Origin: an uncultured Chloroflexia bacterium
GTDB lineage: Bacteria > Chloroflexota > Limnocylindria > Limnocylindrales > CSP1-4
Direction: 5' to 3'
DNA: 64,000 bases
Assembly (NCBI GenBank): GCA_963767165.1
Contig: CAVYCV010000003.1
Coordinates: 986,509 to 1,050,508, forward strand
The notes under the pieces are model-generated. The model had not been told where the DNA came from. It ran no database searches and saw only the letters and a list, made by a program, of their open reading frames with translations. Position numbers and translations under genes: made by a program. Positions 1 through 64,000 of this stretch are shown piece by piece (positions within the stretch are counted from its first letter, which is position 1; each line of letters starts with the position of its first letter).

Positions 1-386
1 CGACGCTCGTCGGCTACGACCTTGCCAACGTCGTCGAGGTCACGGTGCGCGACCTGGCCGCGGTCGCGGTGGTCGTGGACGACGCCCTTCGGGCCGGCGC
101 GACCAGCCTCGATGGTCTCGTGTTCCAGGTCGACGATCCGACCGAGCCCGAACGGGCTGCGCGGGTCGCCGCCGTCGCCGCCGCCCGGGCGCGTGCCGAC
201 GTCCTGGCCGAGGCCGCCGGCGTGACCATCGCGGGCGTCTCGGGCATCGTCGAGGGCGGCCCGCCGCCGGCGTTCCCGCGCGCGAAGGCCGAGCGGATGA
301 TGCTCGCGGCCGATGCCGCGACGCCGGTCTCGGCCGGCACGACCGACGTCACGGTCACGGTGACGGTCACCTACCGGATCGCCTGA
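1..386 (+). CDS. SIMPL/DUF541-like domain protein, 5'-truncated at window edge
   Basis: In-frame ORF continues from position 3 to the stop at 386 (T/V-rich C-terminal beta region 'TDVTVTVTVTYRIA'); the listed ATG-initiated ORF 45..386 is only its tail. Resemblance to SIMPL/26-kDa periplasmic immunogenic protein family is by recall. Confidence 0.5.
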   Translation, partial: TLVGYDLANVVEVTVRDLAAVAVVVDDALRAGATSLDGLVFQVDDPTEPERAARVAAVAAARARADVLAEAAGVTIAGVSGIVEGGPPPAFPRAKAERMMLAADAATPVSAGTTDVTVTVTVTYRIA

Positions 387-415
387 GCCCCCGGGTCGGG
401 CGGCCGGGTCTGGCC

Positions 416-1678
416 TCAGCTCCCCGAGAGCACGCGCAGCAGTTCCCCGGATCCAGGGTCGACCATGTACACGGCACCGTCATCGGCCTGACCGATCGCG
501 CTGATGCTGCGCCCGCTTGCGAGGACCAGCGCTGGCTCGCGCCGGGCGTCGCCGGCCGGGTCCATCGTCCAGATGTTGCCCGAGCATTCGTCGGCGAACA
601 GGTACCGGCCGTCGAGGCTCGCCTGGGTCGGATCATGCACGACGACGCCGCCGACGACCGCGCACCCGAGGTCGTGGCCGTATGCCGCGAGGGGGAGCGT
701 CAGGCCGGTCTGGTCACAGCCCTCCGAGGGCTTGTAGCACTCGAAGCCCTCCATCGTGTTCCAGCCGAGGTCGAGCCCGCCCTGCCCGCTGCGCGAGACA
801 TCGATCTCCTCCCACGCGTTCTGGCCGACGTCCCCGATCCAGAGGTCGCCGGTGGCCGGATCGAAGCGGATCCGCCAGGGGTTGCGCACGCCGGTGTGCC
901 AGATCTCGGGGCGCGCGCCGGCCGTCGCGGTGAACGGGTTGTCCGACGGGACGTCATAGGCGGGGTCCTGGCCTGCGGGCACGTCGACGTCGATGCGCAG
1001 GATCTTCGCCAGGAGGGTGTCGAGGCGCTGTCCGTTGCCCTGCGGGTCGCCGCCGGAACCGCCATCGCCCATGGCGACGTACAGCATGCCGTCGGGGCCG
1101 AAGGCGACGGCCCCGCCGTTGTGGTTCGCGAACGGCTGCTCGATGTGCAACAGGACGCGCTCGCTCTCGGGGTCGGCCGAATCGGCGTCGAGGGACAGGT
1201 CGAACGACGAGACGACCGTGTTGCCGTCGACGTCGGTGTAGTCGACGAAGAAGCGCGGGTCGTCGGGGAACCGCGGGTGCAGTGCCAGGCCCAGGAGGCC
1301 TCGCTCGCCGCCTGCCGAGATGCGCGCGGCGATATCGAGGAACGGCTGCTCGACCAGGGCGCCGTCGCGCACGACCCGGATCCGACCTCCCTGCTCGACG
1401 ACGAAGATCCGCCCCGTCCCGTCGTCGGACGCCACGACGTCGACCGGGCTGTCGAGCCCCGACGCCACGACCTCCAGGCGCACGGTGGCGGCCGGCTCCG
1501 TCGGCTCGGGCGTGGCGCTCGCGGCGCTCGTCGGGGAAGGCGGGGCGATCGTCGGGACGGCGCTCGGCCCGCCAGACGGAGAGATCGTGGGCTGGCCGCA
1601 GGCCATCACGAGCGCGACCGACCCGATCAGGACGGCGCGCGGGAGCCGGCGCGGGGGACGAGGGTCGCGCGCCGTCAT
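416..1678 (-). CDS. PQQ-dependent sugar dehydrogenase (soluble glucose/sorbosone dehydrogenase family) lipoprotein
   Basis: 420-aa intact ORF. The N-terminus has a lipobox-like 'LVMAC' signal. Family motifs 'HNGG', 'GDGG' and 'GLRNPWR' are present, giving a beta-propeller sugar dehydrogenase signature. Confidence 0.85.
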   Translation of the reverse strand: MTARDPRPPRRLPRAVLIGSVALVMACGQPTISPSGGPSAVPTIAPPSPTSAASATPEPTEPAATVRLEVVASGLDSPVDVVASDDGTGRIFVVEQGGRIRVVRDGALVEQPFLDIAARISAGGERGLLGLALHPRFPDDPRFFVDYTDVDGNTVVSSFDLSLDADSADPESERVLLHIEQPFANHNGGAVAFGPDGMLYVAMGDGGSGGDPQGNGQRLDTLLAKILRIDVDVPAGQDPAYDVPSDNPFTATAGARPEIWHTGVRNPWRIRFDPATGDLWIGDVGQNAWEEIDVSRSGQGGLDLGWNTMEGFECYKPSEGCDQTGLTLPLAAYGHDLGCAVVGGVVVHDPTQASLDGRYLFADECSGNIWTMDPAGDARREPALVLASGRSISAIGQADDGAVYMVDPGSGELLRVLSGS

Positions 1679-4579: not shown

Positions 4580-5752
4580 TCAGGCCGTGACGCGGTAGAC
4601 CGTGCCGCCCAGGGAGACCATGAACAGCTCGCCGTTGTCGCCCTCGCCGAACGAGCTGATGTTCTGTGCCGTGTCCCGGAGCAGCGTCTTCGTCGCCGGG
4701 GTCTTGGCGCCGCGCGGGATCGACCAGATCTTGCCCGAGCAGAAGTCCGCGAAGATGTACTTGCCGACGAGCGGCGCCGACGGGCCGCGATAGACGTAGC
4801 CGCCGGTCACGGAGCAGTTGCCGCCACGACGTGGCCGTATTCCACGACCGGAACCACCTTGCCGCTCTTGTTGCAGCCGCTCGACGGCCGGTAGCAGTGC
4901 CGGCCCTCCACGACGCGCCAGCCGAAGTTGGAGCCGCGAGCGGCGGGGCCGCCCGTCGAGGTGACCTGCTTGCGGTTGATCTCCTCGTACCGGTTCTGGC
5001 CGACGTCGCCGATCCAGAGGTCGCCGCGGGTGCGATCGAACGAGAACTTCCACGGGTTGCGCAGGCCGTACGACCAGATCTCGTTGCGTCCAGCTCTCCC
5101 GACGAAGGGATTCGAGGCCGGGATCCTGTACTGGCGCGAGCCCATGGTGCCGTTGATGTTGATCCGCAGGATCTTGCCGAGCAGCCGGTTCTTGTTCTGC
5201 GCGTTGTTGGGCGCATCGCCGCTACCGCCGCCGTCGCCTGACGCCGATGTACAGGTAGCCGTCCGGGCCGAAGGCGAGCATGCCGCCGTTGTGGTTGCTG
5301 TTCGCGCTGTGCTCGATCGTCAGGATCCGCCGGCGGCTGGCCATGTCGGTGCGGTTGGGATTCGTCGTCGAGGCCTTGTACTCGTTGATCGCGATGTCGC
5401 CGCCCTTGCGCGTGAAGTAGACATAGAACTTGCGGTTCGTCTCGTAGTTCGGGTGGAACGCCAGGCCCAGCAGGCCCCGCTCGCCGCCCGAGGCGATCGA
5501 GCCGCTGATGTTGAGGAACGTCCCGAGCGAGGCGCCGGCCTGGGTGTAGGCCTTGATCCGCCCGCCCTGCTCGACGACGAACAGCCGGTTCGTGCCGTCT
5601 CGCGCGCCGGTGACGAAGACCGGGCTCGACAGGCCCGTGATGACCTCCGGCAGGCTGAGCGCGCTCGCGGGCGCCGGCGGCACCATCAGGGCAAGCGCGG
5701 CCAGAAGGGCGAGTGCGGCGCCGCGCGTCCGCCGGCGCGCGCTCAGCGCCAA
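4580..5752 (-). pseudogene. PQQ-dependent sugar dehydrogenase paralog, disrupted by two compensating ±1 frameshifts (pseudogene or assembly indels)
   Basis: The gene is split across three reading frames. The N-terminal part (frame of 5222..5815) has a signal peptide with AxA site, 'VVEQGGRI' and 'HNGGMLAFGPDGYLYIGV'. Frame switches at ~5225 and ~4815. The middle part (frame of 4807..5145) continues 'GDGGGSGD...LGKILRI...GLRNPWKFSFD', and the C-terminal part (4580..5053) has 'TGGYVYRG...IFADFCSGKIW'. Probable TTG start at 5750-5752. Confidence 0.75.
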
Positions 5753-6072: not shown

Positions 6073-6940
6073 ATGAAGACGACGACGCGGCCCTTCGGCG
6101 GCCAGAGCATGTCCGCCCCGCTCCTCGATGTCCTCGTCAAGCGACCGGGGGCAGCGTTCGCGGCGGCGTTCGACGATCCCGACCATGGCTTCTTCCACGC
6201 GCCGGACCTCGACGTCGCCCAACGCGAGCACGACGTCTTCGCCGACACGCTCGCGCGCCTGGGCGCCACCGTCCACGTCCTGGAGACCGAGACCGAGAGC
6301 CCGGATCTCGTCTACACGTTCGACCCGCTGCTGGTGACGGATCGGGGGGCGATCCCGCTCCGGCCGGGGAAGGCGAATCGACTCGGCGAGCCCGCGGCGA
6401 TCGAGGCGTGGACGACGGCTGCCGGGATCCCGACGGTGGGCCGGATCGAGGCGCCCGGGACCGCCGAGGGCGGCGACACCCTCTGGCTCCGACCCGACCT
6501 GTTCTGCATCGGGCGATCGCTGCGGACCAATGACGCCGGGGCGCGGCAGCTCGCCGAGCTCGTGGGCGGTGACGTCCGGATCTTCGACGTCCCGTACTGG
6601 CGCGGGCCCGTCCAAGCTGGTCCACCTCATGTCGGTCATCTCGCCCATCGCAGACGACCTCGCGGTCGTCTACCTGCCGCTGCTGCCGGTCGGTCTCTGG
6701 GCGCTGCTCGGCGAACTCGGCATCCGGCTCGTCGAGGTGACCGACGAGGAGTACTGGACGCTCGGGTGCAACGTGCTCGCGGTCCGCCCGGGCGTGGTGA
6801 TCATCGCCGAGGGCAACCCGGTGGTCGCCGCGGCACTCGCCGCAGCCGGCTGCGAGGTCCACACCTACCCGGCCACCGAGATCGGCCTCAACGGCTCCGG
6901 CGGGCCGACCTGCATGGCGCGACCCATCCTTCGTGGTTGA
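6073..6940 (+). CDS. amidinotransferase/DDAH (dimethylarginine dimethylaminohydrolase)-like protein, one frameshift near 6605
   Basis: The N-terminal 180 aa (6073.. frame) are in family through 'DVPYWRGP'. The remainder is in frame 6530..6940 ('LVHLMSVISP...GGPTCMARPILRG', matching the family C-terminal catalytic Cys region). Confidence 0.7.
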
Positions 6941-8203
6941 GCCGCGGGCCGTGCCGCCCGTGACGCCCGTGATCGACCGGGCGCGCCTGGTCGAGGACCT
7001 GCGGACGCTCGTCGCGGTCCCGAGCGTCACCGGTTCCGAGGAGGCGGTCGCCGCCACGGCCGCGGATCTCCTCCGCGGGGTCGGCCTGGCGGTCGAGGTC
7101 GTCTCGCCCGACCCGGCCGCGGTCCGTGCCGACCCCGATTGGCCCGGGGAGGAGATGCCCCGGACCGCGCTGCCGGTCGTGATCGGGCGGGCCGGGCGGC
7201 CAGGGGGCCGGCGGATCATCCTGTCGGGTCATCTCGATGTCGTGCCTCCCGGCGATCCCGCCACGTGGACCGCCGATCCGTGGGGCGGGGAGATCCGAGG
7301 CGGCGCGCTCTTCGGCCGGGGTGCGTGCGACATGAAGGGCGGGGTCGCGGCGATCCTGGGCGCAGTCCGCGCGCTCGAGGCCTCGGGCGACCTCGACCGG
7401 CTGGATGGCGAGCTGATCGTCGCGCTCGTGCCGTCGGAGGAGGACGGCGGCCAGGGCACGCTCGCCGCGATCCGGGCCGGGGTGACCGGCGACCTCGCGA
7501 TCATCCCCGAGCCGTCAAACCTCGACATCGTCGTGGCGCACGCCGGCGCGATCACGTTCCGGTTGACCGTTCCGGGTCGCGCGGCCCATGCATCGCAGCG
7601 TCGCGAGGGCATCTCCGCCCTCGACAAGCTGTGGGTCCTCTCGAAGGCGCTGGAGGCGGACGAGACGCGTCGCAACGCCGCCGAGACCGACCCGCTGATG
7701 ACGGCCCTCGGGCTGCCGTACCCGACGATCATCGGGATCGTGTCGGGCGGGGAGTGGGCCTCGACCGTGCTCGACCGGGTCACCGCCGACGGCCGATATG
7801 GCGTGCGGCTCGGGCAGTCGGCTGCCGAGGCGGAGGCCGAGCTGCGCGCGGCGATCGCCGCGGCCTGCGCCGCCGACGACTTCCTGCGCGAGCATCCGGC
7901 GCGACGGTCGAGATCACCGGTGGCCGGTTCGGCTCGGCGCGCGTGGCGTCGGACCACCCGCTGCCGGTCGGCCTCGCGAACGTCGCCGAGAGCGTCACGG
8001 GACGCAGCCCAGCGCTGCTCGGCGAGCCGTACGGCGCCGACATGCAGATGTTCGTCAACGTCGGCGCGACGCCGTGCGTCATCTTCGGCCCGGGCGACGT
8101 GAAGGTTGCCCACAGCGCCGACGAGCATGTCCCGCTCGACGAGGTCGAGACCTGTGCGCGCGTGCTCGCGGCCTGGGTCCAGGCGGAGCTGATCGAGGCC
8201 TGA
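6933..8203 (+). CDS. M20 family metallopeptidase (ArgE/DapE-type deacylase), one frameshift near 7895
   Basis: M20 metal-binding motifs 'GHLDVVPPGD' and 'GRGACDMKGG' are present in frame 6933... The C-terminal dimerisation/catalytic part ('GADMQMFVNVGATPCVIFGPGDVKVAHSADEHVPL') is in frame 7139..8203. This gene overlaps the end of the DDAH-like gene by 8 nt. Confidence 0.75.
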
Positions 8204-8258
8204 CCGCCGCGCCATTTTCACCCCTTGACGCGACCGCGACCCGTGCGACGCTGGGGGC

Positions 8259-9323
8259 GTGAGGAAGATCACCGAGAAGACGCCCAAACGCGTCGTCGCC
8301 TGGTCCGGACATCCGGAGGAACGGATCCTCGGGATGGCCGAGGTCGCCGCACGGTTCGGGGTCACCCGCCAACGGGTCGGCCAGATCGCCAGGGCCGACC
8401 GGACGTTCCCGCGGCCGGGCCTGAACGACGGAGCCGGCGCGGCCTGGCTCGCCGCAGGCATCGAGGGCTGGGCGGCTGCGCACCGGCCGACGGCCGACAC
8501 CGGCCGCTTCGGGCCTGAGGTCGCAGCGCTCATCATCCACGCCGAGTCCATCGCCGGGCAGGTGGGTCACCCGTACGTCTCGAGCGTCCACGTCTGGCAC
8601 GCGCTGGCATCGGGCGTCGGCGGGACGGCGCTCGCAGATGCGATCCGCTCGATGGGTCTCGATCCGGCGACGATCGACGAGTGGTTCCGACGCGTCGATC
8701 CCGGGCTGGGCGCAAGCCGATCGAGACGGATGACGCCCGCCACACAGGACCGCCTGGAAGCGGCGGACAAGGTCGTCCGGACGGCGGGCCGGACGACCGT
8801 CCTTCCCACCGACGTCGCACTCGCCTTCGTGGATTCGCATCGATACCGCTGGGGCTCCGACGACCACCTGATCGCCTGCGGAGAGCGTCGCGGTCTCGAC
8901 ACGGCCGAACTCCGGCGCCGGATCACGGTCGTCGCCGCCGACCCCGATGCGCTCGTCGACTTCCCGTCCACGCCGCTCCCGAAGCGTCGGCCGCCGCGCC
9001 GCGGGGCAAGGAGGCCCACGTGGCTGGACCTCGCGCCGAACCCGCTCGGCCACGACCCGTGGGTACGCCGTCCGTGGGGCGCCGGCTTCGCGGTCACCCG
9101 CGAAGGGAAGCACCTCACCTTCGAGGACAGGCACTGGTTCTTCTTCATCGACGCCGACGGCTACTACGTCCGTGCGGCGGACGGGCGCCCGGTGGGTTAT
9201 CGATATCGCGTGCTCCACAAGATGCCCAAGCGGCTGCCGGGCCGGCCGAAGATGGAGATCCTGCCGATGCCGCCATTCCCGCTTCGGGACTGGCCGGACC
9301 GGCGCTACGTCCGCGAGGACTGA
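8259..9323 (+). CDS. HTH (excisionase/MerR-like) DNA-binding domain fused to Clp N-terminal domain repeats; uncharacterised C-terminal region
   Basis: GTG start. 'ILGMAEVAARFGVTRQRVGQIARADRTFPRP...WLAAGIEGW' resembles Xis/AlpA-type HTH. It is followed by two Clp_N-like repeats ('HPYVSSVHVWHALAS', 'TPATQDRLEAADKVVRTAGRTTVLPTDVALAFV'). The C-terminal 'HWFFFIDADGYYVRAADGRPVGYRYRVLH' is not recognised. Confidence 0.55.
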   Translation: MRKITEKTPKRVVAWSGHPEERILGMAEVAARFGVTRQRVGQIARADRTFPRPGLNDGAGAAWLAAGIEGWAAAHRPTADTGRFGPEVAALIIHAESIAGQVGHPYVSSVHVWHALASGVGGTALADAIRSMGLDPATIDEWFRRVDPGLGASRSRRMTPATQDRLEAADKVVRTAGRTTVLPTDVALAFVDSHRYRWGSDDHLIACGERRGLDTAELRRRITVVAADPDALVDFPSTPLPKRRPPRRGARRPTWLDLAPNPLGHDPWVRRPWGAGFAVTREGKHLTFEDRHWFFFIDADGYYVRAADGRPVGYRYRVLHKMPKRLPGRPKMEILPMPPFPLRDWPDRRYVRED

Positions 9324-10588: not shown

Positions 10589-13500
10589 TCAGTCCAGACC
10601 GAGCGTCAGCACCTCGATGCGCGGCGCGACCGGGTCCGCCGGAGGCGGCGTTACCGCGGCCATCTCCAGAAAGCGACAGAACGCGTTCGCCAACCGCATC
10701 TGCGCCGGATTCCGGGCGCGGACCCGCCACAGGTCGGGCGACCCGACCACCAGCGCCACGCATCGGGCCCGCGAGGTCGCGACGTTGAGTCTGTTCCGGC
10801 TGTAGAGGAAGTCCATCCCGCGCGGCGCGAGCTCCGGGCTCGACGTCGTCAGCGAGTAGATGCTGATCGGCGCCTCCTGGCCCTGGAACTTGTCGACGGT
10901 GCCGACCCGCGCCTCCGCGGGCAGCAGGCGCTTGATCGCCCCGACCTGCGCGTTGTATGGCGCGACGATGAGCACGTCGTCCCATCCGAGCGGTCGCGTG
11001 ACGCCATGGCGGTCCATCCATCGCGAGCCGCCGGCGGTCAGGGACCGGGCGATCGCCGCGACCCGTTCCGCCTCGACCGTCGACTCACTGTCGGCGCCGT
11101 CGGTGACGACCTCGATCAGGCGCGGTCCGACGCCGTCGAGGTCGGCCACGGTCGAGTCGAGCCGCTGGATCACGAGATGCGGTTCGGACTCCAGGCGGTC
11201 GTCGTAGAAGACCTCGGACGTGAAGGCGCACAGGGCCGGGTGCATCCGCCACGTGTGCTCGAGGAAGAGGCCACGTTCGGGTGGCATCGTCGCCCGACCG
11301 TCGAGGACGTGGGCCAGGGCCGATCGATCCGCGCCCGCGGGATGGGTTCCCTTGAGTGGCTGGTCGAGCTGTTGCGGGTCGCCAAGCAGGACGAGGTTCG
11401 CGGTCGCCCGGGCCATCGCGATGACGTTCGCGAGCGAGATCTGCCCCGCCTCGTCGACGAACAGCACGTGGACGGCGTCCGCCATCTTCGTCGACACCCA
11501 CAGCCATGCCGTGCCGGCCGCGAGGTTGGCCCGGCCGTCATCGAGACGCGACCGGACGTCCGAGGCGTCCTTCGCGTGCGCGACCGACGGATGATCGACC
11601 ACCTGGTCCTTCGGCCCGTGCTGGATGGCACGGACGTTACCGGGATCGCTGGCCTCGATCACCTCGCGGAGGAGATTGCCGATCACCTTGTGACTCGTGG
11701 CACTGATCCCCACGCGCTTGCCCGCGCGCAGGAGCGACACGATCATGCGGGCCCCGGTGTACGTCTTGCCGGCGTCCGGGTGGTCCCTGGATCGCGAGGG
11801 TGGTCGAGTCGAGCCGACCGGCCAGGCGGATCGCGGCTGCCTCGAGGTCCGCGTCTTCGGGGTCGACCAGCGGGCTGCCGGGCGCCTGCCCGACCCGTGG
11901 CGGGCGCCCGAGCAGTAGCTCCCTGGCGAGCCGGTGCGGGCCGTCGGCGTCGATGCCATGCTCGGCGACCCACTCGCCGAGCTCGAACAGTGACGCCTGA
12001 TGATCGACGGTCCGGACCCAGTCGAGGGCCACGACCGAGCGCGGGTGCGGCTTCTCGACCTCGCGGCGGATGTCGATCGTCAGACCCGCGAGGTCGACGG
12101 CGACCATCTTGCCCGTGTCCCACTCGAACGGGCTGACGCCGGGTGCGGCTTGACTGAGGGCGGGATCGAACAGCTCCCCACGCCCGAGGTCGAAGTCCTG
12201 GTCCGGGAAGGAGTACCGCCATGTCTGCTTGCCCCTCACGGGTTCGTCGAGCGGACCGATCGGCTCGAGCCCGCCAAGCGGCACGTTCTCCTCGATCGCC
12301 TGATCCTCGTCGAGTCCCATGTGGCGAAAGAAGTCCCACCACATCGCCTTGTCCTCGCGACGGTGCCAGCCAAGGAGCTGCGCCAGCAGCCAGCGGCCGT
12401 GCTGTTCGGGGTTTCGGTCGGCGGCGTCCGTCGGGACGATCTCCGGATCGGCCAGGCGGTCGGCGAGCGCCTGGATCCGCGCCTGCGCGTCGGTGACGTC
12501 CTCCGGCAGCGCCTGACGCTCGCCCGGGCGCGGGACCGGTCGGCCGGTCGCCTCGGCCAGCTCGCCACGCAGTGCCTCGAGCCAGTCGCGGAGCTGGCGG
12601 TTGCTGATGACGTCATCGCGGTTGTAGCGCTCGATGCGATCGAGGATCGTCGAGTCCGGACGCTCTCCCTCGCCGAGCTCCAGCCACTCCTCGAACGCGA
12701 CGATGCTCGATCCCGCGTCTCGAAGATCGACCTCGCGCGTGAACCCGTAGAACGCCTCCATCTTCTTGATCGAGTAGCTCTCGACCGAAGCCCGCAACGA
12801 CTGGCGCACGGCCCGCAGGAGGTCGACCAGCGTGCCGGCCCGCAGCAGGTCGTCGACCTCGTTCTCGCGGGTGCCATACCGACCCATGAGGCGCTTGAGC
12901 GCGGTCGGCTCGTACGGGGCGTAGTGGTAGATGTGCAGGTTCGGGTCCGCCCGGATCCGCTCGCCGATGAAGTCCATCACCGCCTCGAACGCGCGACGTT
13001 CGCCATCCAGGCTGAACTCGCCAGCCTCGTCGCGCGACCAGAACGCGTGAAACGTGCCGTCGACCTCGAGGATGCCGAACAGGTAGTCGAGGCCGTCGTC
13101 GAAGGCGTATGGGTCGCCCTCGAGATCGAGGAACAGGTCGCCCGGCGACGGCGGCGGGAGCGAGGCCAGGCCACGTTCCTGGCCGATCGGGTCCTCGCCC
13201 TGCGGAAGCAGGAGCTCGTAGCGGCCGGCCCCGGTGCGACGCCCCTCGAGCTGGATCCGCGCCTGCTCCCGGACCCGCAGGAGCGCCTCCTTGCTCGTCC
13301 CTTCGAGCTTCGGATCCATGGGCAGCGGCAGGTCGCCGAGCGCCTCGAGAGTCGGGCACGCCGCGGTCGATCAGGGCCCGTCGCTGGCGGGCCGAGATCC
13401 CGGCGACGAGGCTGAGGTGGTCGTCCGATCGTCGACGGGCGACGCACTCGGCTGCCCACCGGCAGACATCGCAATGCTCGACAGGTTCGGGATAGGTGGT

Positions 13501-14164
13501 CGCCGGCGGGTAGGTCGCGGCCACCTCGTCGGTCATGGTGGCGAGGAAGCGGGTTTTCGCGCTGCGGTAGTACGCCATGTAGTCGTCGACACGGAGCCGC
13601 TCGACCGCTCGGGCGCTGCCCCCCAACGCCACATGCATCCACTCCGGGCGGACACCCTGGATGAGCTCGAGCTGATCGACGTAGCTGCAGATCTGGAGGA
13701 CCGCGCTCGCCTTGACGTGTCGGGCGAGCTTGGTGTCCGCGACCTCGTAGTGCCACGGCCCCCAGACCGATGGACGTTCCGGGTCGTGAGACGCGCAGAA
13801 GGAAGTCCGCATGCCCGCGCCAGGTGCCGTCGAAGAACGTGGCCTGGAAGATGACGTCGTCGCCCCTGGCCATCGCGTCGATCGTCTCGTCCGCCGCGGC
13901 GCGGAGCTGGTCGCCCTGGTCCGCGATCGATCCGTCGAGCGTGATCGTGGTCGACGTCCGGCCGTCCGCCAGCAGGTCCGCGAGGAAGCGCCGCTCGTGC
14001 TCGAAGCCGCGCTTGCGGATGATGTCGAGCTCCGGGTCGTCGCGCATCGGTCGCTTGACCAGGCCAGCCAGCGCGGCCCGCTCGAGCTGGGTCAGGTGCT
14101 CACAGGCGAGGTAGGCGACGAGATCGGTGGCGGCGTAGACCGGTCGGCCGTCGATGGTCTGCAC
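10589..14164 (-). pseudogene. TM0106-family RecB-like (Cas4-type PD-(D/E)xK) nuclease fused to Superfamily-1 (Upf1/DNA2-like) helicase, ~1190 aa, interrupted by three frameshifts
   Basis: The gene is split across four frames. Frame 12977..14164 has the N-terminal nuclease ('ATDLVAYLACEHLTQLE...GHADFLLRV'). Frame 12613..13812 continues 'WHYEVADTKLARHVKASAVLQICSYV...CDVCRW'. Frame 11637..13319 carries the long linker ending 'LAIQGPPG'. Frame 10589..11959 carries the helicase Walker A and C-terminal domain ('GKTYTGARMIVSLL', 'VLFVDEAGQ', 'VDKFQGQEAPISIY', 'NRLNVATSRAR'). Frame switches occur at about 13790, 13320 and 11795. Confidence 0.8.
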
Positions 14165-15178: not shown

Positions 15179-15204
15179 GCGCGGGTCCCACCTAAGATTG
15201 CGAC

Positions 15205-28506: not shown

Positions 28507-31251
28507 GGACTACGGCGCGAGTGGTGTCGGCGTCGGGGTCGGCGGGACCGGGCGTCGGGGTCGGCGTCGGCGGCGCCGGGGTCGGTGTCGGCGGGACAGG
28601 CGTGGGCGTAGGTGTCGGTTCGGCGGTCGGTGATGGCGTCGCCTCCGATGTCGGCGAGGCGCTGTCTGACGGCGAGGCCGTCGGGGAGGCCGGCGGGCAT
28701 GGCAACGCAGCCACCTCCGACCCGGACGGCGACGGCAGCGCGAACGAGGGGATGACCCCGCTCTCGTCAGGCGTGGGCAGCGGGATGCACGACGGCGACG
28801 GGCTCGGCCCGCAGCCCTCCGCGCCGACGACGGCGCCCCACGACCCGCCGTAGGGCCGGAACGCGCCGTTGTAGAAGAACGCGGTGCGCGTCTTGTTCAC
28901 GCCGCCGGCCGTGCCTGGACCACGTTCCGCGCGCCGGATCCAGTTCCGGTCCGCCTCCATCCAGTTGCCGAAGCGCGTCTCGAAGGCGCCCGGCACCGCG
29001 CCGAGGACGTCGATGCCGCAGGTGTTCGCGGGCAGGGCGTCCTTGGGCTCCGTGCCGGAGATGAACCACTCGTTGACCGACTCGCCGCCGGCCCGTGCCT
29101 TGGTCCCGGTCCATGGGTCGATGGCGACGCGGGTCAGGCCGTCAGGCCGCGCGAACCGGGTCACCGGCCACTTGCGGCTGGCCTCCTGGAGGAAGCCCTG
29201 CCATACGTAGGTGGAAACGTCGATCGAGAACACCGGGCGTCCTGGCGTCGAGACCGGCGTGTTGTCGCTGTTGCCGTTCCACACGCCCACGGTCAGGGCG
29301 TAGGCGCCCGCGTCGCGGCCCTTCTTGGTGGGCGGGGCGATGTAGCCGTAGGCGTTGAGGTCCTTCGCGTCGTTGTTCGTGCCGGTCTTGAGCGTCGCGG
29401 GCCGGCGGGCGTTCTCGCCACGGATCGCGAACTTGCCCCAGTACGGGTTGACACTCGGGTTCGTGTTGCCGGCGAGGATGTCGGTCACGATGAACGCCGA
29501 CTGGGGCTTGATGACCTGGACGGCGGCGGGCGGCGTGTACGTCTCTTGGACGTCCGCGCCGTTTCGATCCTTGATGCTGATGATCGTGGTGTGGCCGACC
29601 TTCTTGCCGCCGTTGGCCAGCGTGGCGTAGGCGGTCACCAGGTCGACCGGGCGGACCTCCGCGACGCCCAGCGCCAGGGCGAGGCCCGCGTCGGTCTTGT
29701 CCTGCTGGAAGGTCATCCCGAAGTCCTTGGCCCGATCGAACACGTGGTCCGGCTTGTTGACCGCCATCGCCTTGACCGACGGGATGTTGAGCGAGAACTG
29801 GAGCGCGTTGCGGACGCGGACAGGTCCGCGCTCGAGGTTGTCGGCATCGCTGGGCGTGTAGCCGCCGCCGAAGTCCGCGGCGCTGTCCATGAACATCGAA
29901 CCGGCCGTGAGCGTGCCATCGTCGATGCCGGTCGCGTAGTTGAAGGGCTTGAAGGCCGAGCCCGGCTGGCGATAGCCCTTGCCGATGACGTCGTACTGCG
30001 GCTGGAACTCTGGTCGGCTCTCGCGTCGCGTAGTACTTGGCCGAGCCGACGTAGGCGACGAGCTCGCCGGTCTGGTAGTCCATGGCGACGAGCGCGCCGT
30101 TGCGCAGGTGCTTGCCCTCGAGGTTCCTGACCCAGTCCGGGTAGGAGTCGAAGTCGAGCGCCTTGGCCTCGGCCGCCCTATTCGCCTTGGGCCGGTGCGC
30201 CAGGAGCGCCGACGCCTCGACCCATTTCTCGGCGATCTTCTGGAGACGCAGGTCGAGGGTAGTCGTGATGCGCAGGCCGCCGCGCTCGAGCGATCGACAG
30301 CTCGTCGCGTCCGGGTCGCACAGGCGCGCGGTCAGCTCGTCGCGGACCGCCCACACGAAGTGCGGCGCGAGCCAGTGCGGCGTGACCTGGCTGGCGAGCA
30401 GGACAACGTCCTTCTTCGCGTTCCGGAATTGCTGGGCTGTGTACTGGCTGCCTGACTTGGGCGTGCGGCCTTCGGCGAGCAGGTCCAGCACGGAGTTGCG
30501 CCGGGCGACGATCGTCGTCGTCTCGGGGACGATGAGGTCCGCCTTCGGGCAATCGGCGTCCTCCGCCACGACCGTGGTGCACTGCTCGATGTGGTTGCGG
30601 ACCAGGTCGTAGTTCGACGGTGACTTGGGCAGGCTCGCGATGATGGCCGCCTCGGCCGGCGTGATGTCGGCGAGCGGCTTGCCGAAGTAGCCCTCGACCG
30701 CCGCCTTCACGCCGTAGCTCTGGTTGCCGTAGTAGTTCTGGTTGAGGTAGGCCGTGATGATGTCGCTGCTTGCCCGCTTCGCCCGCGAACACCTGGGTCA
30801 CCCGGATCGACTGGATGATCTCCTTGAGCTTGCGCTCGACCGTCCGGTTCGGGTCCTGGACGAGGTCTTCCGGAAGCAGCCGCGCCCGGACCAGCTGTTG
30901 GGTGATCGTCGAGGCGCCACGGCTGTTGCCGCGGATGGAATCGAGGCCGGCCGAGATGATCGCCATCGGGTCGAAGCCCGCGTTGTCCCAGAACGTCTTG
31001 TCCTCGATGGCGGTCGTCGCGTCGAGGAGGATCGGCGGGATCTCCTCGTAGGTCACGACCTCGCGACGCTCGTCGCCGAAGCGGGCCAGCTCGGTCTCGC
31101 CGGTCCGGTCGTAGATGATCAATTCCTCGACAGGCGTGATCGCGGTCAGGGCACGCACATCTGGCAGGCCGGAGGCGAGGCTGTTGTAGACGCCGACCAC
31201 GGCGAGCGCCCCGATCAGCCCGATCCCCGCCAGGAACAGCAGGATGATCAC
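28499..31251 (-). pseudogene. class A penicillin-binding protein (PBP1A-type transglycosylase/transpeptidase) with Pro/Thr-rich C-terminal tail; at least three frameshifts
   Basis: The GT51 domain (frame 30178..31251) has 'EDKTFWDNAGFDP' and 'GASTITQQLVR'. The linker and transpeptidase N-part are in frame 29142..30710. The transpeptidase core is in frame 28499..29896 ('KTGTNND' KTG motif). The tail is a 'PTPTPTP' low-complexity region. Confidence 0.8.
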
Positions 31252-55072: not shown

Positions 55073-55166
55073 CGATCGAGTATGCCGTGGCGACTGGTCC
55101 CGTGGCGAAGGGTCCGTTCGGCACGGGCTCGATATCGTTCCACGCCCTAGAGTTGCCGCCGGATGG

Positions 55167-55724
55167 ATGTCATCGGGACCGTCGAACTCTTCTACGCGAT
55201 GCTCGCCGATCGCGGCGAATATCTTCGTGATCGGCCTGCTGGGGTTGGCCCTGGCCAGCCGCGGCTCGCCGTCCGCGCAGGGCTGGCTGGCCGCCGCCCG
55301 GTCCGGCCTTGGCTCGAGCGCATTGGCTGGTGCATTCGTCGTGGCCGTGCTGGCGACCGCCGGCAGTCTCTACTTCTCGGAGATCGCCCATTTCGAGCCG
55401 TGCAAGTTGTGCTGGTACCAGCGCATCGCGATGTACCCGCTCGTCGTGATTCTGGGCATCGCGGCGTGGCGCAGCGACCCGGGCGTCCGGCGCTACGCCG
55501 CGCCGATCGCGGTGATCGGCGCCGTCATCTCCACATACCACTACCTGCTCGAGTGGTTCCCGGCACTCGACTCCGGCGTCTGCTCAGCGACCACGCCATG
55601 CTCGGTCGTCTGGTTCCGTCAGCTCGGGTTCGTGAGCCTGCCGTACCTCGCGCTCTCGGCCTTCCTGCTCATCCTGTCGCTGCTCTGGCTCGCCAGAGTC
55701 CCGGACCCTGATCGAGGACCCTGA
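55167..55724 (+). CDS. DsbB-family (BdbC-like) disulfide bond formation protein B
   Basis: 'SLYFSEIAHFEPCKLCWYQRIAMYP' (CxxC in first periplasmic loop), a second Cys pair 'CSATTPC', and four TM helices. Confidence 0.7.
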   Translation: MSSGPSNSSTRCSPIAANIFVIGLLGLALASRGSPSAQGWLAAARSGLGSSALAGAFVVAVLATAGSLYFSEIAHFEPCKLCWYQRIAMYPLVVILGIAAWRSDPGVRRYAAPIAVIGAVISTYHYLLEWFPALDSGVCSATTPCSVVWFRQLGFVSLPYLALSAFLLILSLLWLARVPDPDRGP

Positions 55725-56392
55725 TGACCAAGACCAAGCCATCGCGCCGATCCGCGCCGCCGCCGCGCAAGGGTGCGTCGCCCTCGACGCTCATCCTCGG
55801 ACTGGCGGGGCTCGTCATCGCCGGAGCCGCCGTGGCGGCCATCGTGCTGACCCAGTCCGGGACCGCGGCCGTCGCGAGCGCGTCCCCGAGCGGGGTCGCG
55901 CCTTCGACGGCGGTGACCGGAAAGGCATTGCCGGCCTTCGATCCCGGCGTCGTCGATCGCGGCCGTCGGCCAGCCGGCGCCGCAGGTCGATGGTGCGTCG
56001 TTCGACGGCACGCCGGTCAGCATCAAGGCCGACGGCCGGCCGAAGCTCGTCCTGTTCATCGCCCACTGGTGCCCGCACTGCCAGCGCGAGGTGCCGGTCG
56101 TGCAGAGCTGGCTCGACGCCGGTGGGTTGCCCGACGGCGTGGACCTCATCTCGGTCGCTCCGCGAACGACCCGACGCTGCCGAACTATCCGCCGGACGCG
56201 TGGCTGGCGCGCGAACGCTGGTCATCGCCGGTCATCGTCGATGGCGATCGAGCGATCGGGACCGACTACGGCCTGACCGCCTTCCCGTACTGGGTCGCGG
56301 TGGGTGCCGACGGGAACGTGGTCGGTCGCCTGAGCGGTGAGCTGACCGCCGCCCAGCTCGACGCGCTGGTGGCCTCGATCAGCGGGAGCTGA
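55724..56392 (+). pseudogene. TlpA/ResA-like thioredoxin-fold thiol:disulfide oxidoreductase, two frameshifts
   Basis: The signal/TM anchor and 'KALPAFD' are in frame 55724... The redox motif 'FIAHWCPHCQREVPVVQSWL' is in frame 56091... The C-terminus 'GLTAFPYWVAVGADGNVVGRLSGELTAAQL' is back in frame 55724... The start overlaps the DsbB stop. Confidence 0.65.
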
Positions 56393-56401: not shown

Positions 56402-57486
56402 CTAGTCCGACGCGTGGTGTCGGAGCTTGACCTCGAGCATGGCCGCGTCGGCTCGCTCGGTCAGCTGATCGGCCGTGTCCCCGGCCGCCAGTGCGGCGAA
56501 CCCGACGCTGATGCCGATCTCGGCCTCGGCCTCGAGCGTGAGAGCGATCGCCTCGAACCGGCGTTCGGCCTCCGCGAGGTCGGTCCCCGTGAGCCCGCAC
56601 ACGAACTCGTCGCCGCCGTAGCGAACGATCGGGTCGAATGAGCGCAGCCGTCCGCGGATCGCGCGGACGACGGACTGCAGGATGCGATCGCCCGCCGCGT
56701 GGCCGTCGCGATCGTTGACGAGCTTGAGCCGATCCACATCCACGAACGCGAGCACGAACCGCCCGTCCGAGCGGCGTGCCCGATCGATCTCGTGCGAGAG
56801 CGCCATGCGGCCCATCTCGCGGCGATAGGCGCCGGTCAGCTGGTCGAGGTGCGCCGAGCGCAATTCCGATTCGAGACGCGCGCGCTCGCGGGCCGCATCG
56901 GCACGCTCGAGCCTGGCTCGCTCGCGATCGCGGCGGCCCGCGCGCGATCGACGGCGGCCCTGGCGGCGAGCTCCTCGAGCTGGTGCAGGAGATCGGCCTC
57001 GGCGCCGTTCATCGACTCGGTCATGTGGGCCGCGCGCGCCTCGCGGTCGTTGGTCGCATGGTCCCGGGCCGTCGCTGTCCGATCCCGCTTGGCCGACGTC
57101 AGGTCGCGGTCGTGCGCGGTCCCGGCCCGCTTGAGGCGATCCACGATCCGCTCGAACGAGCCGCTCGCCCGCTGCTCGCGCGAGGTGTCGTACGCCCGCT
57201 CCTCGGCGGGCGTCAGGTTCGACCGGCCGGCCCGATCGAGGTCCGCGGCCGCCTGGTCCTTGTCCGACGCGCGCTGATCGCGCTCGGAGGTCGTCTGGTC
57301 GGTGCCTGACGACGTCTGATCGGCGTCGGAGGCCGTCTGGTCGGCGTCGGAGGCCGACTGGTCCGCATCGGCCGCCGCCTGGTCGGACTCGACGGCCCGG
57401 CGAGCCTCGAGCACGGTCTCGCGGACCTCGAAGACAGGGTCGCCGACCGACTCGGGGCCATGGATCTCGATATCGGGGTTCTTCAT
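56402..57486 (-). CDS. GGDEF domain diguanylate cyclase with N-terminal coiled-coil / heptad-repeat region, one frameshift near 56945
   Basis: The GGDEF domain (frame 56402..56863) has the 'RYGGDEF' active site. The N-terminal part (frame 56836..57750, starting 'MKNPDIEIHG') contains the 'DADQSASDADQTASDADQTSSGTDQTT' repeats. Confidence 0.65.
57295..57399. repeat. five imperfect 21-bp tandem repeats (consensus CTGGTCGGCGTCGGAGGCCGT on + strand) encoding heptad 'SDADQTA' repeats in the GGDEF protein
   Basis: Direct reading of 57295-57399. Confidence 0.7.
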
Positions 57487-57747: not shown

Positions 57748-58604
57748 CATGGCTGAGGAGATCCCGGCTCGAGGACCAGGCTCGCCGCCGTCAGGCCGTC
57801 TGCGGACGCGTCTCGGACGTTCGGTGCCGTTCGTCTCGGGTGCCGCGGTCGCGCTGGTGGCCGTGTTCCTCTACGGCGTCCTCGTTCCCGGGTACGCCGC
57901 CATTGACCCAGCGTGACGTCAACGACACCATCGCGAGCGCCCTGGCGTCCGTCACGCCTCCGCCGGCGTTCTCGGAGCTGGTCTACCAGGCCGTGCAGCC
58001 ATCGCTGGTGCTGATCCAGACGAACCAGCCCCACGGGCAGGCAGCACAGGACGCGACACCGGAGGAGGACGGCGGCCTCGGCAGCGGCGTCGTCGTCAGC
58101 CTCGACGGCGACATCCTGACCAGCCTCCACGTGATCGCCGACGCGACCGAGATCAAGCTGACGTTCGCCGACGGCACCACGTCGGGTGCCGACGTCGTGG
58201 CCCGCCAGCCCGAGCACGACATCGCTGTGCTGCGGGCGACCCGGCCCCCGGCCAACCTCGTGCCGGCGGTCCTGGGCAATCCCGGCGCCGTCCGGCAGGG
58301 GAGCGAGGCCTACGCGATGGGCAGTCCCTTCGGGCTCTACGGCTCGATGAGCGCCGGCGTCATCTCCGGGCTCGACCGATCGTTCCAGATGCCTGACAGC
58401 GACCGGGTGCTCACGGGGCTCTTCCAGATCGACGCCGCCGTCAATCCAGGGAACTCCGGCGGCGCGCTGACCGACCGCGACGGGCATGTGATCGGGATCG
58501 TCACGGCCCTCATCAACCCCACCGAGGACGACGTCTTCATCGGCATCGGCCTCGCGGTCCCGATCGATGTCGCCGGCGGCGCCGCCGGCCTGCCCCCGTA
58601 CTAG
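57748..58604 (+). CDS. trypsin-like serine protease (S1C/HtrA-like, no PDZ recognised), one frameshift near 57900
   Basis: The N-terminal TM anchor ('VALVAVFLYGVLVPGYA') is in frame 57485... The protease domain (frame 57684..58604) has the 'GNSGGAL' serine motif and the His region 'LTSLHVIADA'. SD CAGGAGAC lies before the ATG at 57748. Confidence 0.7.
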
Positions 58605-58617
58605 AGGAGAGTCGCGA

Positions 58618-60505: not shown

Positions 60506-61522
60506 GTGACGTTCATCTGGCCGGCGATGCTGCTGCTCATCCTCACGATCCCCCTCGGGGCAGCCGGCTATCTCGCGCTCGAGCGCCGGCGCCGGCGCCG
60601 GGTGGCGGCCTACGGGATCACGGCCGGTCCCGGGTCGGCCGGCGTCCCGAAGCGGCAGGCTGGTCTGCGGCGCCGGATCGCGTCCGCGTTCATCCTCGTG
60701 GGCCTGGCCATGCTCGTGGTCGCGATGGCCCGTCCCCAGAGCGTCGTCAGCGTGCCGCGGGTCGAGGGCACCGTGATCCTCGCGTTCGACGTGTCCGGCA
60801 GCATGGCCGCCGACGACCTCGAGCCGACCCGGATGGAGGCGGCCAAGGCCGCGGCTCGCGCGTTCGTCGAGCGCCAGCCGACATCGATCCTGATCGGGGT
60901 GGTCGCATTCAGCGACAGCGGCTTCTCGATCCAGGTGCCGACCAGCGATCCGACCCCGGTGCTCGCCGCGATCGACCGGCTCGCGCCGGAGCGTGGCACG
61001 TCCCTCGGCCGCGGCATCCTGACCTCGCTCACGACCATCGCCGCCGCCGAGGCCGATCCGGCGGAGGGCTACTACACCAACCGCTCGCCCGACCCGACGC
61101 CCGACCCGACACCCGTGCCGGCCGGGACTCACGCCCCGGCCGCGATCGTGCTGCTGACCGACGGCGAGAACAACCAGTCCCCGGATCCGCTGGAGGCGGC
61201 CGGCGTCGCAGCCGATCGTGGCGTGCGGATCTTCACCGTCGGCATCGGCAGCGCCGCGGGGGCGACGCTCGAGGTCGAGGGCTTCATGGTCCACAGCCAG
61301 CTCGACGAGCCCTTGCTCCGGCAGATCTCGGATTCGACCGGTGGCGCCTACTACGCCGCCACCGACCCCGACGAGCTCGCCGCGATCTACGCGGGCATCG
61401 ATACCCGTCTCACCGTCAAGCCGGAGGCGATGGAGGTCACCTCGCTGTTCGCGGGCGCCGGGGCGTTGATCCTGCTGATCGGTGCCGTCGCCTCGCTGAC
61501 CTGGCTGGGCCGGCTGCCATGA
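60506..61522 (+). CDS. VWA domain-containing membrane protein (BatA-like)
   Basis: Two N-terminal TM helices. The VWA MIDAS motif 'ILAFDVSGSM' and 'LLTDGENN' are present, with a C-terminal TM helix. Confidence 0.8.
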   Translation: MTFIWPAMLLLILTIPLGAAGYLALERRRRRRVAAYGITAGPGSAGVPKRQAGLRRRIASAFILVGLAMLVVAMARPQSVVSVPRVEGTVILAFDVSGSMAADDLEPTRMEAAKAAARAFVERQPTSILIGVVAFSDSGFSIQVPTSDPTPVLAAIDRLAPERGTSLGRGILTSLTTIAAAEADPAEGYYTNRSPDPTPDPTPVPAGTHAPAAIVLLTDGENNQSPDPLEAAGVAADRGVRIFTVGIGSAAGATLEVEGFMVHSQLDEPLLRQISDSTGGAYYAATDPDELAAIYAGIDTRLTVKPEAMEVTSLFAGAGALILLIGAVASLTWLGRLP

Positions 61523-62586: not shown

Positions 62587-62606
62587 TTCGCGCCCTCAGC
62601 GGGCGG

Positions 62607-64000
62607 TCACCTGAAGTAGCCGGTCACGTCGAACACCAGGTGGGTCGTGGCCCCGGCCTTGGCCTTGTACACGGCGTTGAGCGTGCCGCCGCTGCCCAGG
62701 GCCACGGTCACCCCGTTGGCCCGCGTGTCGCCGGCCGGGAAGTTGATGGTCGAGGTCGAGCCGCCGGCGGCCGGGGCCAGGACGACGTAGCCGCCCCTGG
62801 TCTGGCGGGTGACGGTCAGGTTGCCGGTGACCGCGACCGCGTTGGCCGGGATCGGCGTGCCGTCGGCGACGACGAAGCTCCGGGCCGTGTTGGCGTGGAA
62901 CACGCCACTCAGGCCCAGGTTCGAGCGGGTGTCGAGGCTGCGCTCGGGGGTGAGCGGGAAGAAGGACGCTCCGGTGGGCCCGTCGAGGTAGTAGCCGGTC
63001 ACGTCGAACACCAGGTGGGTCGTGGCCCCGGCCTTGGCCTTGTACACGGCGTTGAGCGTGCCGCCGCTGCCCAGGGCCACGGTCACCCCGTTGGCCCGCG
63101 TGTCGCCGGCCGGGAAGTTGATGGTCGAGGTCGAGCCGCCGGCGGCCGGGGCCAGGACGACGTAGCCGCCCCTGGTCTGGCGGGTGACGGTCAGGTTGCC
63201 GGTGACCGCGACCGCGTTGGCCGGGATCGGCGTGCCGTCGGCGACGACGAAGCTCCGGGCCGTGTTGGCGTGGAACACGCCGTTGAGCCCGATGTTGCTC
63301 CGGCTGTCGAGCACCCGGACCGGGCTGATGGCATGGAACCGCGAGCCACTGCTGCTGGTGGTGTAGTAGCCGGTCACGTCGAACACCAGGTGGGTCGTGG
63401 CCCCGGCCTTGGCCTTGTACACGGCGTTGAGCGTGCCGCCGCTGCCCAGGGCCACGGTCACCCCGTTGGCCCGCGTGTCGCCGGCCGGGAAGTTGATGGT
63501 CGAGGTCGAGCCGCCGGCGGCCGGGGCCAGGACGACGTAGCCGCCCCTGGTCTGGCGGGTGACGGTCAGGTTGCCGGTGACCGCGACCGCGTTGGCCGGG
63601 ATCGGCGTGCCGTCGGCGACGACGAAGCTCCGGGCCGTGTTGGCGTGGAACACGCCGTTGAGCCCGATGTTGCTCCGGCTGTCGAGCACCCGGACCGGGC
63701 TGATGGCATGGAACCGCGAGCCGGGCGGAGGCGAGACGTGGATGTAGTCGGTCCTCGTCATCGTGTTGCTGCCGGCCGCATTGGTCGCCGTCAGCTTCAC
63801 GGTGTACGTGCCGGGGTTGTACGTGTGGCTCGGCGTCGCCTCGGTCGAGGTGCCGCCATCGCCGAAGTCCCACGAGTACGTCAAGGGGCCGGTCCCGGTC
63901 GATGTGTTGGTGAACGTGACCGCCAATGGCGACGTTCCCGAGGTCGGCGACCCGGCGAAGTTCGCATCCGGTGGCGTCGGAGCCGTCACCTTGATGTAGT
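62607..64000 (-). CDS. secreted PKD-domain protein with three near-identical ~125-aa tandem repeat modules; 5' end (N-terminus) lies beyond the window
   Basis: PKD signature 'LTYSWDFGDGGTSTEATPSHTYNPGTYTVKLTATNAAGS' near 63850-63989, followed by 3x repeats 'RFHAISPVRVLDSRSN...THLVFDVTGYY'. The stop is at 62607. Confidence 0.7.
   Translation of the reverse strand, partial: YIKVTAPTPPDANFAGSPTSGTSPLAVTFTNTSTGTGPLTYSWDFGDGGTSTEATPSHTYNPGTYTVKLTATNAAGSNTMTRTDYIHVSPPPGSRFHAISPVRVLDSRSNIGLNGVFHANTARSFVVADGTPIPANAVAVTGNLTVTRQTRGGYVVLAPAAGGSTSTINFPAGDTRANGVTVALGSGGTLNAVYKAKAGATTHLVFDVTGYYTTSSSGSRFHAISPVRVLDSRSNIGLNGVFHANTARSFVVADGTPIPANAVAVTGNLTVTRQTRGGYVVLAPAAGGSTSTINFPAGDTRANGVTVALGSGGTLNAVYKAKAGATTHLVFDVTGYYLDGPTGASFFPLTPERSLDTRSNLGLSGVFHANTARSFVVADGTPIPANAVAVTGNLTVTRQTRGGYVVLAPAAGGSTSTINFPAGDTRANGVTVALGSGGTLNAVYKAKAGATTHLVFDVTGYFR
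62620..63744. repeat. three direct tandem copies of a 375-bp unit (about 285 bp identical core plus about 90 bp variable linker) inside the PKD-protein gene
   Basis: Unit starts at 62620, 62995 and 63370, each beginning CCGGTCACGTCGAACACCAGGTGGGTCGTGGCCCC. Identical short ORFs at 62809, 63184 and 63559 in the ORF track confirm the 375-bp period. Confidence 0.9.

Follow-up and report, generated by a model that had tools for sequence, protein, structure and literature searches.

The 64,000-nucleotide window studied here (the whole of positions 986,509 to 1,050,508 of contig CAVYCV010000003.1, from an uncultured, soil-type Chloroflexota bacterium) carries 27 frame-breaking events that are specific to it. 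These events were located by alignment to relatives and fall in 17 protein-coding genes, at a spacing of about one per 2.4 kb. They are very probably consensus errors of a long-read-only metagenome assembly and not mutations in the organism. The bacterium itself, which lies near Candidatus Limnocylindria by the names of its homologs, almost certainly has all 17 genes in intact form. An earlier reading of the window, made from the letters and without database searches (the sequence-only reading), had claimed about 25 frameshifts, or one per ~2.5 kb, in at least 15 genes. Both figures are borne out; the 17 genes are those on its list, together with DsbB, galactokinase (GalK, at the C-terminus only) and a DJC28-like gene. 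That reading had also preferred uncorrected long-read indels to pseudogenisation. This preference is favored by the private and insertion-biased nature of the events, by the lack of nonsense codons and of relaxed constraint, by a contrast between types of assembly, and by the megabase size of the contig.

Syntenic relatives were gathered through cluster members and by three homology searches with stitched proteins. From JGI, contigs L082, L083 and L084 span 18.5-39.7 kb of the window, and L168, L169 and L170 span 52-62.6 kb. From ENA, the stretches 1-28 kb and 39-57.6 kb are spanned by L081/L167 (ERZ25039469 contig_5403, 334 kb), L085 (ERZ25039555 contig_1444, 321 kb) and L086 (ERZ25039492 contig_80807). 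The relatives are 85-92% identical to the window, with nucleotide identities of 81-88% in long collinear alignments, and homologs near the window's proteins bear the names of Chloroflexota, Candidatus Limnocylindria or Limnocylindrales. No conspecific genome (>95% average nucleotide identity) turned up, and the sharing of lesions was compared only with these relatives at 85-92% identity. A scan of metagenome contigs with MoxR returned relatives only at 68-76% nucleotide identity, which is enough to see the shift in the HtrA-like protease gene at the protein level but not at the level of the base.

The window was segmented into reading frames with a hidden Markov model (HMM) of codon-position G+C that includes a stop-codon penalty. 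Because the G+C content is 71% throughout, long spurious open reading frames (ORFs) occur in all frames. By this model, the frame changes directly on the same strand 45 times across the window (0.70 per kb), and all of the positions listed in the sequence-only reading are among these switches. On the syntenic relatives, the same model gave ~0.4 switches per kb for the JGI contigs and 0.68 and 0.81 per kb for two of the long ENA contigs. The JGI value therefore represents the ordinary level of gene boundaries, and the excess in the window is ~0.3 per kb. Each frame segment was then translated and scanned against Pfam. Many switches simply mark the boundary between two genes whose domains are complete (PfkB, KDPG aldolase, MR_MLE, GalK and MoxR/DUF58/BatA/BatB). 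At others, neighboring same-strand segments in different frames match successive parts of a single profile. The same scan agrees with the earlier statement that other long genes are intact; these include the GSDH gene at 419-1678, the UvrA-like gene at 15205-17601, the M14, S8 and TPP enzyme genes, and MoxR/DUF58/BatA/BatB.

For the event catalogue, the DNA of the window was aligned to the syntenic relatives, the gaps were listed, those within 45 nt of one another were merged, and only gaps whose net length was no multiple of 3 were kept. For each gap kept, the partner whose coding frame changes at that point was identified. All 27 events thus assigned to the window fall at HMM switches, and the gene concerned is in frame in one to four comparators. 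They are given below with the Pfam profiles that they split (profile positions in successive frames).

GSDH paralog (gene ~4580-5752), 4825..4826, minus strand: two extra nt (CA), absent in L085 and L086; HMM switch at 4820.
GSDH paralog, 5239, minus strand: one extra nt (T), absent in L085 and L086; GSDH profile split over two frames, 8-131 then 134-241.
DDAH/arginine-deiminase-like gene (6073-6940), 6604, plus strand: one extra G (GG to GGG), absent in L085 and L086, with identical flanks; ADI profile split over two frames, 183-219 then 295-377.
M20/ArgE-like peptidase gene (6933-8203), 7899..7900, plus strand: two extra nt (GC), absent in L085 and L086; Peptidase_M20 profile split over two frames, 1-117 then 114-205.
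TM0106-type RecB-like nuclease-helicase gene (10589-14164), 11775, minus strand: one extra nt (T), absent in L085 and L086; RNase_H_2 and AAA_11/AAA_12 matches of this gene are split over frames.
Nuclease-helicase, 13354, minus strand: one extra nt (G), absent in L085 and L086; HMM switch at 13349.
Nuclease-helicase, 13788, minus strand: one extra nt (G), absent in L085 and L086.
DJC28_CD-domain gene (native start ~14227), 14271, plus strand: probable extra nt (C), ~15 codons in; L085 keeps frame; HMM coding frame from 14281.
Class-III aminotransferase gene (18586-19954), 19028, minus strand: one extra nt (A), absent in L082 and L085; Aminotran_3 profile split into several pieces in different frames.
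Aminotransferase, 19417, minus strand: one extra nt, absent in L082 and L085.
Aminotransferase, 19577, minus strand: one extra nt, absent in L082 and L085.
Aminotransferase, 19701, minus strand: one extra nt (G), absent in L082, with identical flanks.
ABC-transporter ATPase gene (21784-22828), 22166, plus strand: one extra nt (C), absent in L082 and L085; ABC_tran profile split over two frames, 2-92 then 88-137.
Molybdopterin oxidoreductase gene (26099-27631), 27204, minus strand: net loss of one nt in a low-complexity stretch; L082, L084 and L085 keep frame; a single 1-nt gap when aligned with L084.
Molybdopterin oxidoreductase, 27376, minus strand: one extra nt (G), compensating 27204 at a distance of 172 nt; absent in L082-L085.
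PBP1A (gene ~28502-31330), 30009..30025, minus strand: net gain of one nt between the transglycosylase and transpeptidase parts; L082-L084 keep frame; a single +1 at 30023 in the L084 alignment; Pfam domains in different frames.
PBP1A transglycosylase domain, 30764, minus strand: one extra nt (C), absent in L082, L083 and L084; Transgly profile split, 4-102 then 105-163, with Transpeptidase in a third frame.
PBP1A near the N-terminus, 31259, minus strand: one extra nt (A), absent in L082, L083 and L084, with identical flanks.
GalK gene (31486-32695), 31523, minus strand: one extra nt (G), 12 codons before the stop; absent in L082 and L084.
SMP-30/gluconolactonase gene (33930-34818), 34395, plus strand: one extra nt (T), absent in L082 and L084; SGL profile split over two frames, 1-143 then 142-245.
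Kynureninase gene (35254-36508), 35683, minus strand: one extra nt (G), absent in L082 and L084; Aminotran_5 then KYNU_C in different frames.
Beta-lactamase-like hydrolase gene (44666-45488), 45163, plus strand: one extra nt (G), absent in L081; Beta-lactamase profile split over two frames, 16-189 then 265-313.
DsbB gene (55163-55727), 55208, plus strand: one extra nt, 15 codons in; absent in L167-L170; Pfam match in frame +2, ATG at 55163 in frame +1.
TlpA/AhpC-TSA-like thioredoxin gene (55724-56392), 55950, plus strand: one extra nt (T), absent in L167-L170.
TlpA-like gene, 56158, plus strand: one nt missing, compensating 55950 after 208 nt; one more base in L081/L167, L168, L169 and L170.
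GGDEF diguanylate cyclase gene (56405-57486), 56930, minus strand: one nt missing (GG to G); the extra G is present in L167-L170.
HtrA-like trypsin-fold protease gene (57824-58605), 57885, plus strand: one extra nt, 20 codons in; absent in L168, L169 and L170; the subject frame of an ortholog tblastn changes at ~57890.

Four of these events go beyond the sequence-only reading, namely that in DsbB (55208), the third in PBP1A (31259), that at the C-terminus of GalK (31523) and the probable one in the DJC28-like gene (14271). Of the 13 coordinates that it had offered for inspection, 12 lie within ~35 nt of an event; the remaining one, 35840, is displaced from the actual site at 35683. Its assertion that housekeeping-type genes are affected finds its example in PBP1A, with three located events. 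The event at 14271, with L085 as its single comparator, is the weakest of the 27. The event at 45163 likewise has one comparator, because L081 is itself broken elsewhere in the beta-lactamase-like gene. The low-complexity C-terminal tail of PBP1A (28480-28629) was left uncounted; it contains eight gaps, net +8, and the frame there is open to the orthologous stop.

Outside coding sequence as well, the window differs from three or four comparators by single-base indels, at 58603, 55113, 57490 and 57735. The first of these is inside a stop codon, which reads TAG in the window and TGA in the relatives. Indels outside coding DNA are what position-blind errors would produce.

When 25 of the events were deleted or padded, 15 single ORFs were recovered from native start codons, and each is within 0-8 aa of the length of its ortholog. 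Removal of both events from the GSDH paralog, of all three from the nuclease-helicase and of all four from the aminotransferase restores products of 389, 1190 and 454 aa, the lengths of the respective orthologs. The repaired DDAH-like (288 aa), ABC-transporter ATPase (347 aa), gluconolactonase (295 aa), kynureninase (417 aa) and HtrA-like (259 aa) products also equal their orthologs in length. Small differences remain for the M20/ArgE-like peptidase (422 versus 419 aa), PBP1A without its three events (942 versus 934 aa) and the GGDEF protein (361 versus 368 aa); the other four ORFs are of 510, 402, 186 and 222 aa, against 513, 401, 187 and 225 aa in the orthologs. Proteins stitched across the switches tell a similar story. 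The 1193-aa nuclease-helicase covers 100% of 1190-aa homologs of the TM0106 RecB-like family at 92% identity, PBP1A covers 99% of its 934-939-aa homologs at 87-88% identity, and the 360-aa GGDEF protein covers 100% of 361-368-aa homologs at 85% identity. In the relatives, the TlpA-like gene is intact at 204-225 aa. The shift in GalK lengthens the product to 422 aa, whereas those of the relatives are all 400-402 aa long.

Real inactivation of 17 genes should bring with it several nonsense substitutions. With the window projected on the frames of the comparators, no internal stop codon appeared in ~50 genes, or ~15,000 codons; the two stops encountered in the projection are natural C-termini. 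All of the lesions are indels of 1-2 nt, and the mixture of lesion types expected of decay was not found. Further, the ratio of nonsynonymous to synonymous substitution rates (dN/dS) is 0.08-0.36 in the broken genes and 0.015-0.33 in the intact ones, and these ranges are indistinguishable. Values for individual broken genes are 0.083 for the helicase, 0.082 for the aminotransferase, 0.079 for the ABC ATPase, 0.13 for the gluconolactonase and 0.20 for PBP1A. Purifying selection has acted on the broken genes until practically the present day. An unchanged dN/dS excludes old pseudogenes, though not very recent ones. No large deletions were seen in the window, and its Pfam matches are all to ordinary cellular families, with no transposase among them.

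The spectrum of the events is lopsided. It consists of 21 single-base insertions, two 2-base insertions (CA at 4825 and GC at 7899) and four single-base deletions, the last being those at 27204, 56158 and 56930 and one member of the 30009-30025 cluster, which as a whole is net +1. Counted by net effect per event, there are 23 insertions and 4 deletions (85% insertions). The ratio of insertions to deletions among the private shifts of relatives is 9:0 in L085, 2:0 in L086 and at least 3:0 in L081. Indels in bacterial pseudogenes are biased toward deletion. That four lineages should independently favor +1 insertions, against this natural bias, points to the signature of a pipeline. The sequence-only reading had described the shifts as often compensating, a description that is too generous: true pairs of opposite sign occur in 2 of the 17 genes, the molybdopterin oxidoreductase (-1 then +1) and the TlpA-like gene (+1 then -1). 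In the helicase, PBP1A and the aminotransferase, successive +1 events instead cycle through the frames. The inserted bases are asymmetric between strands: of the 22 read on the plus strand, 17 are G (11) or T (6) and the rest are C (3) or A (2).

Two explanations grounded in local sequence were considered and set aside. The suggestion that the shifts fall in G/C homopolymers is unsupported, because only 6 of the 22 single-base insertions duplicate a neighboring base and no run exceeds 3; a homopolymer explanation was rejected on these grounds. Enrichment around the events was tested for GATC, CGATCG, CCGG, GGCC, GCGC, CGCG, TCGA and three 6-mers, and none survives correction for multiple testing (GATC, P=0.25; CGATCG, P ~0.03 before correction for twenty tests). 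An explanation in terms of methylation motifs is therefore also unsupported.

The sequence-only reading had called for a comparison with orthologs from relatives. At all 27 sites the relatives (one to four syntenic comparators each) keep the frame, and no event is common to the window and any relative. The JGI contigs L082, L083, L084, L168, L169 and L170 together show one private shift in ~67 kb of the same genes, and in L082 all 19 genes are intact over 22.8 kb. The sole JGI shift is a private 1-nt deletion in the kynureninase gene of L084 (JGI 3300081966; L084:5234-6486), corresponding to window position 36102, that splits the product into 156 and 260 aa; it may be either genuine or an error. 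The ENA assemblies with contig_N names, by comparison, have private shifts of their own in genes that the window has in one piece: at least 9 in 23 kb of L085, at least 2-3 in 13 kb of L086 and at least 4 in 20 kb of L081. Among the genes broken in these three contigs are those for an M14 peptidase (412+124 aa), GSDH, M20, DDAH, Aminotran_3, an NPCBM-associated protein, DUF72 and a 367-aa protein. At such sites, any third sequence available agrees with the window. Private frameshifts are thus systematic in the data source of L081, L085 and L086. The frequency of shifts follows the type of assembly rather than lineage, with the technology of each assembly assumed from its naming and source.

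The deposited record bears on the origin of the shifts. By exact look-up, seven intact proteins of the window were found in a public protein collection, each on one contig of 1,079,347 bp (NCBI and ENA). The shifted, 422-aa form of GalK is present on that contig as well; therefore, at least the event at 31523 is in the deposited sequence. None of nine N-terminal fragment ORFs, six indel-corrected proteins and three M-start variants was in the collection by exact look-up. The missing fragments and corrected proteins say nothing about the source annotation, which may have flagged pseudogenes or chosen other starts. The idea that the window had been planted or edited was rejected, given that the shifted GalK product is public and the corrected proteins were not found.

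Related long contigs have Flye-style names and neighboring ENA analysis accessions, and GTDB records named alike are metagenome-assembled genomes of the Microflora Danica project. That catalogue was built from complex soil metagenomes with Nanopore reads only, Flye assembly and one round of Medaka polishing (PMC12313526). Nanopore R10.4 assemblies need ~40x coverage to lose the indels that fragment genes (PMC9262707). We infer that the source is a Nanopore-only Flye and Medaka assembly of modest coverage, of the Microflora Danica kind. In such an assembly, extra single bases, and sometimes two extra bases or one missing base, would be written into the contig at consensus, with low coverage, mixed strains or both as the probable proximate cause at this step. 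Gene callers would then read each error as a frame switch, and each gene would be seen either in two to five pieces or as one ORF, part of which is scrambled.

Several facts weigh against consensus error as the source of the shifts. How the source contig was sequenced, and to what depth, is inferred, and that the JGI contigs are short-read assemblies is an assumption. For 39.7-56.6 kb, the one comparator is itself error-prone. The textbook Nanopore signature is deletions in homopolymers (PMC12007338), whereas the events here are mostly insertions outside them, and we cannot name a pipeline step that would produce such insertions. Their density is also uneven: 21 events lie in 1-36 kb and 1 in 36-55 kb, where 8 would be expected (P=0.003), followed by 5 in 55-58 kb and none in 58-64 kb. 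Finally, the number of genes affected is 17, as opposed to 20.7 expected at random (P=0.045), and genes hit several times are also expected if the genes are really dead. Local coverage or strain heterogeneity could be behind both the insertions and the patchiness.

Some of these facts would suit a bacterium that has undergone massive and very recent inactivation of its genes, by reductive decay or in a mutator episode, so that 17 of them would have fixed real +1 insertions. Several of the genes carry 2-4 lesions, the regional unevenness and the concentration in few genes are as just described, the events lie away from the classical site of sequencing errors, and the shifted GalK stands in the public record. 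Nevertheless, genuine pseudogenes of this sort are improbable. They would have accumulated 27 frameshifts and no nonsense codon at an unchanged dN/dS, and the 23:4 bias toward insertion runs opposite to the deletion bias of bacteria. They would have no lesion in common with any relative, while three other contigs of long-read style bear private insertions in different genes and the JGI contigs of the locus are clean. PBP1A and DsbB would be among the losses, and neither large deletions nor a transposase match in Pfam accompany them in the window. The +1 insertions might instead be real products of an insertion-prone mutational process in wild Limnocylindria-like Chloroflexota, such as a replication or repair defect acting at non-repetitive sites. 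Such a process would explain both the private, insertion-biased shifts in four related long contigs and the clustering of hits in certain genes and regions; it would also mean that several related lineages each have many freshly broken genes, and we regard it as a very long shot. Programmed recoding, by ribosomal +1/-1 frameshifting or transcriptional slippage, would account for full-length products that are conserved and for frames that resume exactly. It is so improbable as to be negligible: the 27 sites have no slippery heptamer, homopolymer or other motif in common, orthologs are uninterrupted at the same codons in every relative, up to four shifts fall within one 1.4-kb gene, and a stop codon and intergenic DNA are hit as well (58603, 55113 and 57490).

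Within the class of assembly artefacts, the errors may have a more specific cause, namely a consensus drawn over co-existing strains, in which polishing wrote both alleles at polymorphic sites. The dominance of insertions outside homopolymers is consistent with this idea, local strain diversity could yield an uneven density, and the presumed source project is set in complex soil metagenomes (PMC12313526). By eye, ~8 of 20 insertions adjoin a substitution relative to the comparators, somewhat above the ~23% expected at 12% divergence. This excess of adjacency is weak, and simple low coverage fits the data equally well. We view strain mixture as an unlikely candidate for the cause.

Comparison to known systems leads in the same direction. 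Pseudogene-rich reductive genomes include those of Mycobacterium leprae, Sodalis and recent host-restricted pathogens. The window resembles them in having many interrupted genes that are conserved or of housekeeping type, some with several lesions; it differs in its lack of nonsense mutations, relaxed dN/dS, transposase Pfam matches and shared lesions, and in its bias toward insertions instead of deletions. In genes that employ programmed frameshifting, such as prfB, dnaX and the transposases of the IS3 family, a change of frame is likewise needed for the full-length product. The window has neither a conserved slippery site nor conservation among orthologs, and its shifts affect many unrelated genes, several times each. 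The closest likeness is to the indels of Nanopore-only Flye and Medaka assemblies, as seen in truncation tests of the IDEEL type (PMC9262707, PMC12007338, PMC12313526). Common to both are scattered indels of 1-2 nt at about one per 2-3 kb, conserved genes that are split into adjacent ORFs and restored by single-base correction, events peculiar to each assembly that the presumed short-read JGI contigs lack, and a megabase metagenomic contig. Classically, these indels are deletions in homopolymers of at least 4, whereas the window, a presumed Nanopore product, has 85% insertions and no run longer than 3. The window fits the class of long-read consensus indels in every tested respect except the association with homopolymers.

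The frameshifts are not a biological feature of this organism and bring no new biology; their value is as an annotation warning. The sequence-only reading held that the shifts matter for the interpretation of every coding-sequence boundary; the boundaries of the 17 broken genes are wrong as called. Counts of pseudogenes, calls of pathway completeness and claims of gene fusion made from this contig would mislead, for example by scoring PBP1A or DsbB as lost. The 17 genes, including those for PBP1A, DsbB, the HtrA-like protease and the 1190-aa nuclease-helicase, should be treated as intact. Correction tools that are weighted toward homopolymers will miss insertion-biased events of this non-homopolymeric kind. 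Some database proteins look like products of such errors, namely the 422-aa GalK and ABC-PBP1A fusions of 1095-1242 aa. Private errors of this sort are found in related public long contigs too, and the problem therefore reaches protein catalogues. The fusions, P0041 (1095 aa) and P0124 (1242 aa), come from other long contigs in NCBI and ENA and join an ABC_tran ATPase to the PBP1A transglycosylase and transpeptidase. They are probably artefacts of indels that remove a stop codon, because the two genes adjoin in this locus.

Other features of the locus emerged from the same comparisons. A block of four genes at 14666-18587 encodes a glyoxalase, a UvrA-like double ABC ATPase (15205-17601), an AraC regulator and a second glyoxalase; it is absent from L085 and has no frameshift. 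Its proteins are 75-89% identical to those of Nocardioides, Micromonospora, Streptomyces and other loci that keep the same small cluster. A scan of genome contigs with the UvrA-like protein recovered only loci of actinobacterial type, whose common part is just the UvrA/AraC/glyoxalase cluster; they could not serve as comparators. The block looks like a horizontally acquired island of the drug-resistance type. At its left boundary, a 455-aa ORF (13811-15175) joins DJC28_CD and glyoxalase domains. In the relatives, the DJC28-like gene stands alone and encodes 151 aa, and the read-through in the window is probably not a real fusion.

Elsewhere, ARAGORN reported a "tRNA-???" at 39631-39719, with a four-base anticodon (ggga), that overlaps the 3' end of an AHSA1-like gene. 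A scan of the whole window with Rfam at gathering thresholds found no RNA family, and the ARAGORN call is therefore probably a false positive. Between the M20 peptidase and an MFS transporter, at 8246-9303 of the window, is a 364-aa ORF (8229-9320) with a weak match to Clp_N; it is missing from L085 and L086 and is therefore a lineage-specific insertion. Finally, 47 nt present between BatA and BatB in L168 are missing from the window at 61524. As a consequence, BatA and BatB abut or overlap here, with the stop codon of the one at 61520-61522 and the start of the next at 61519.

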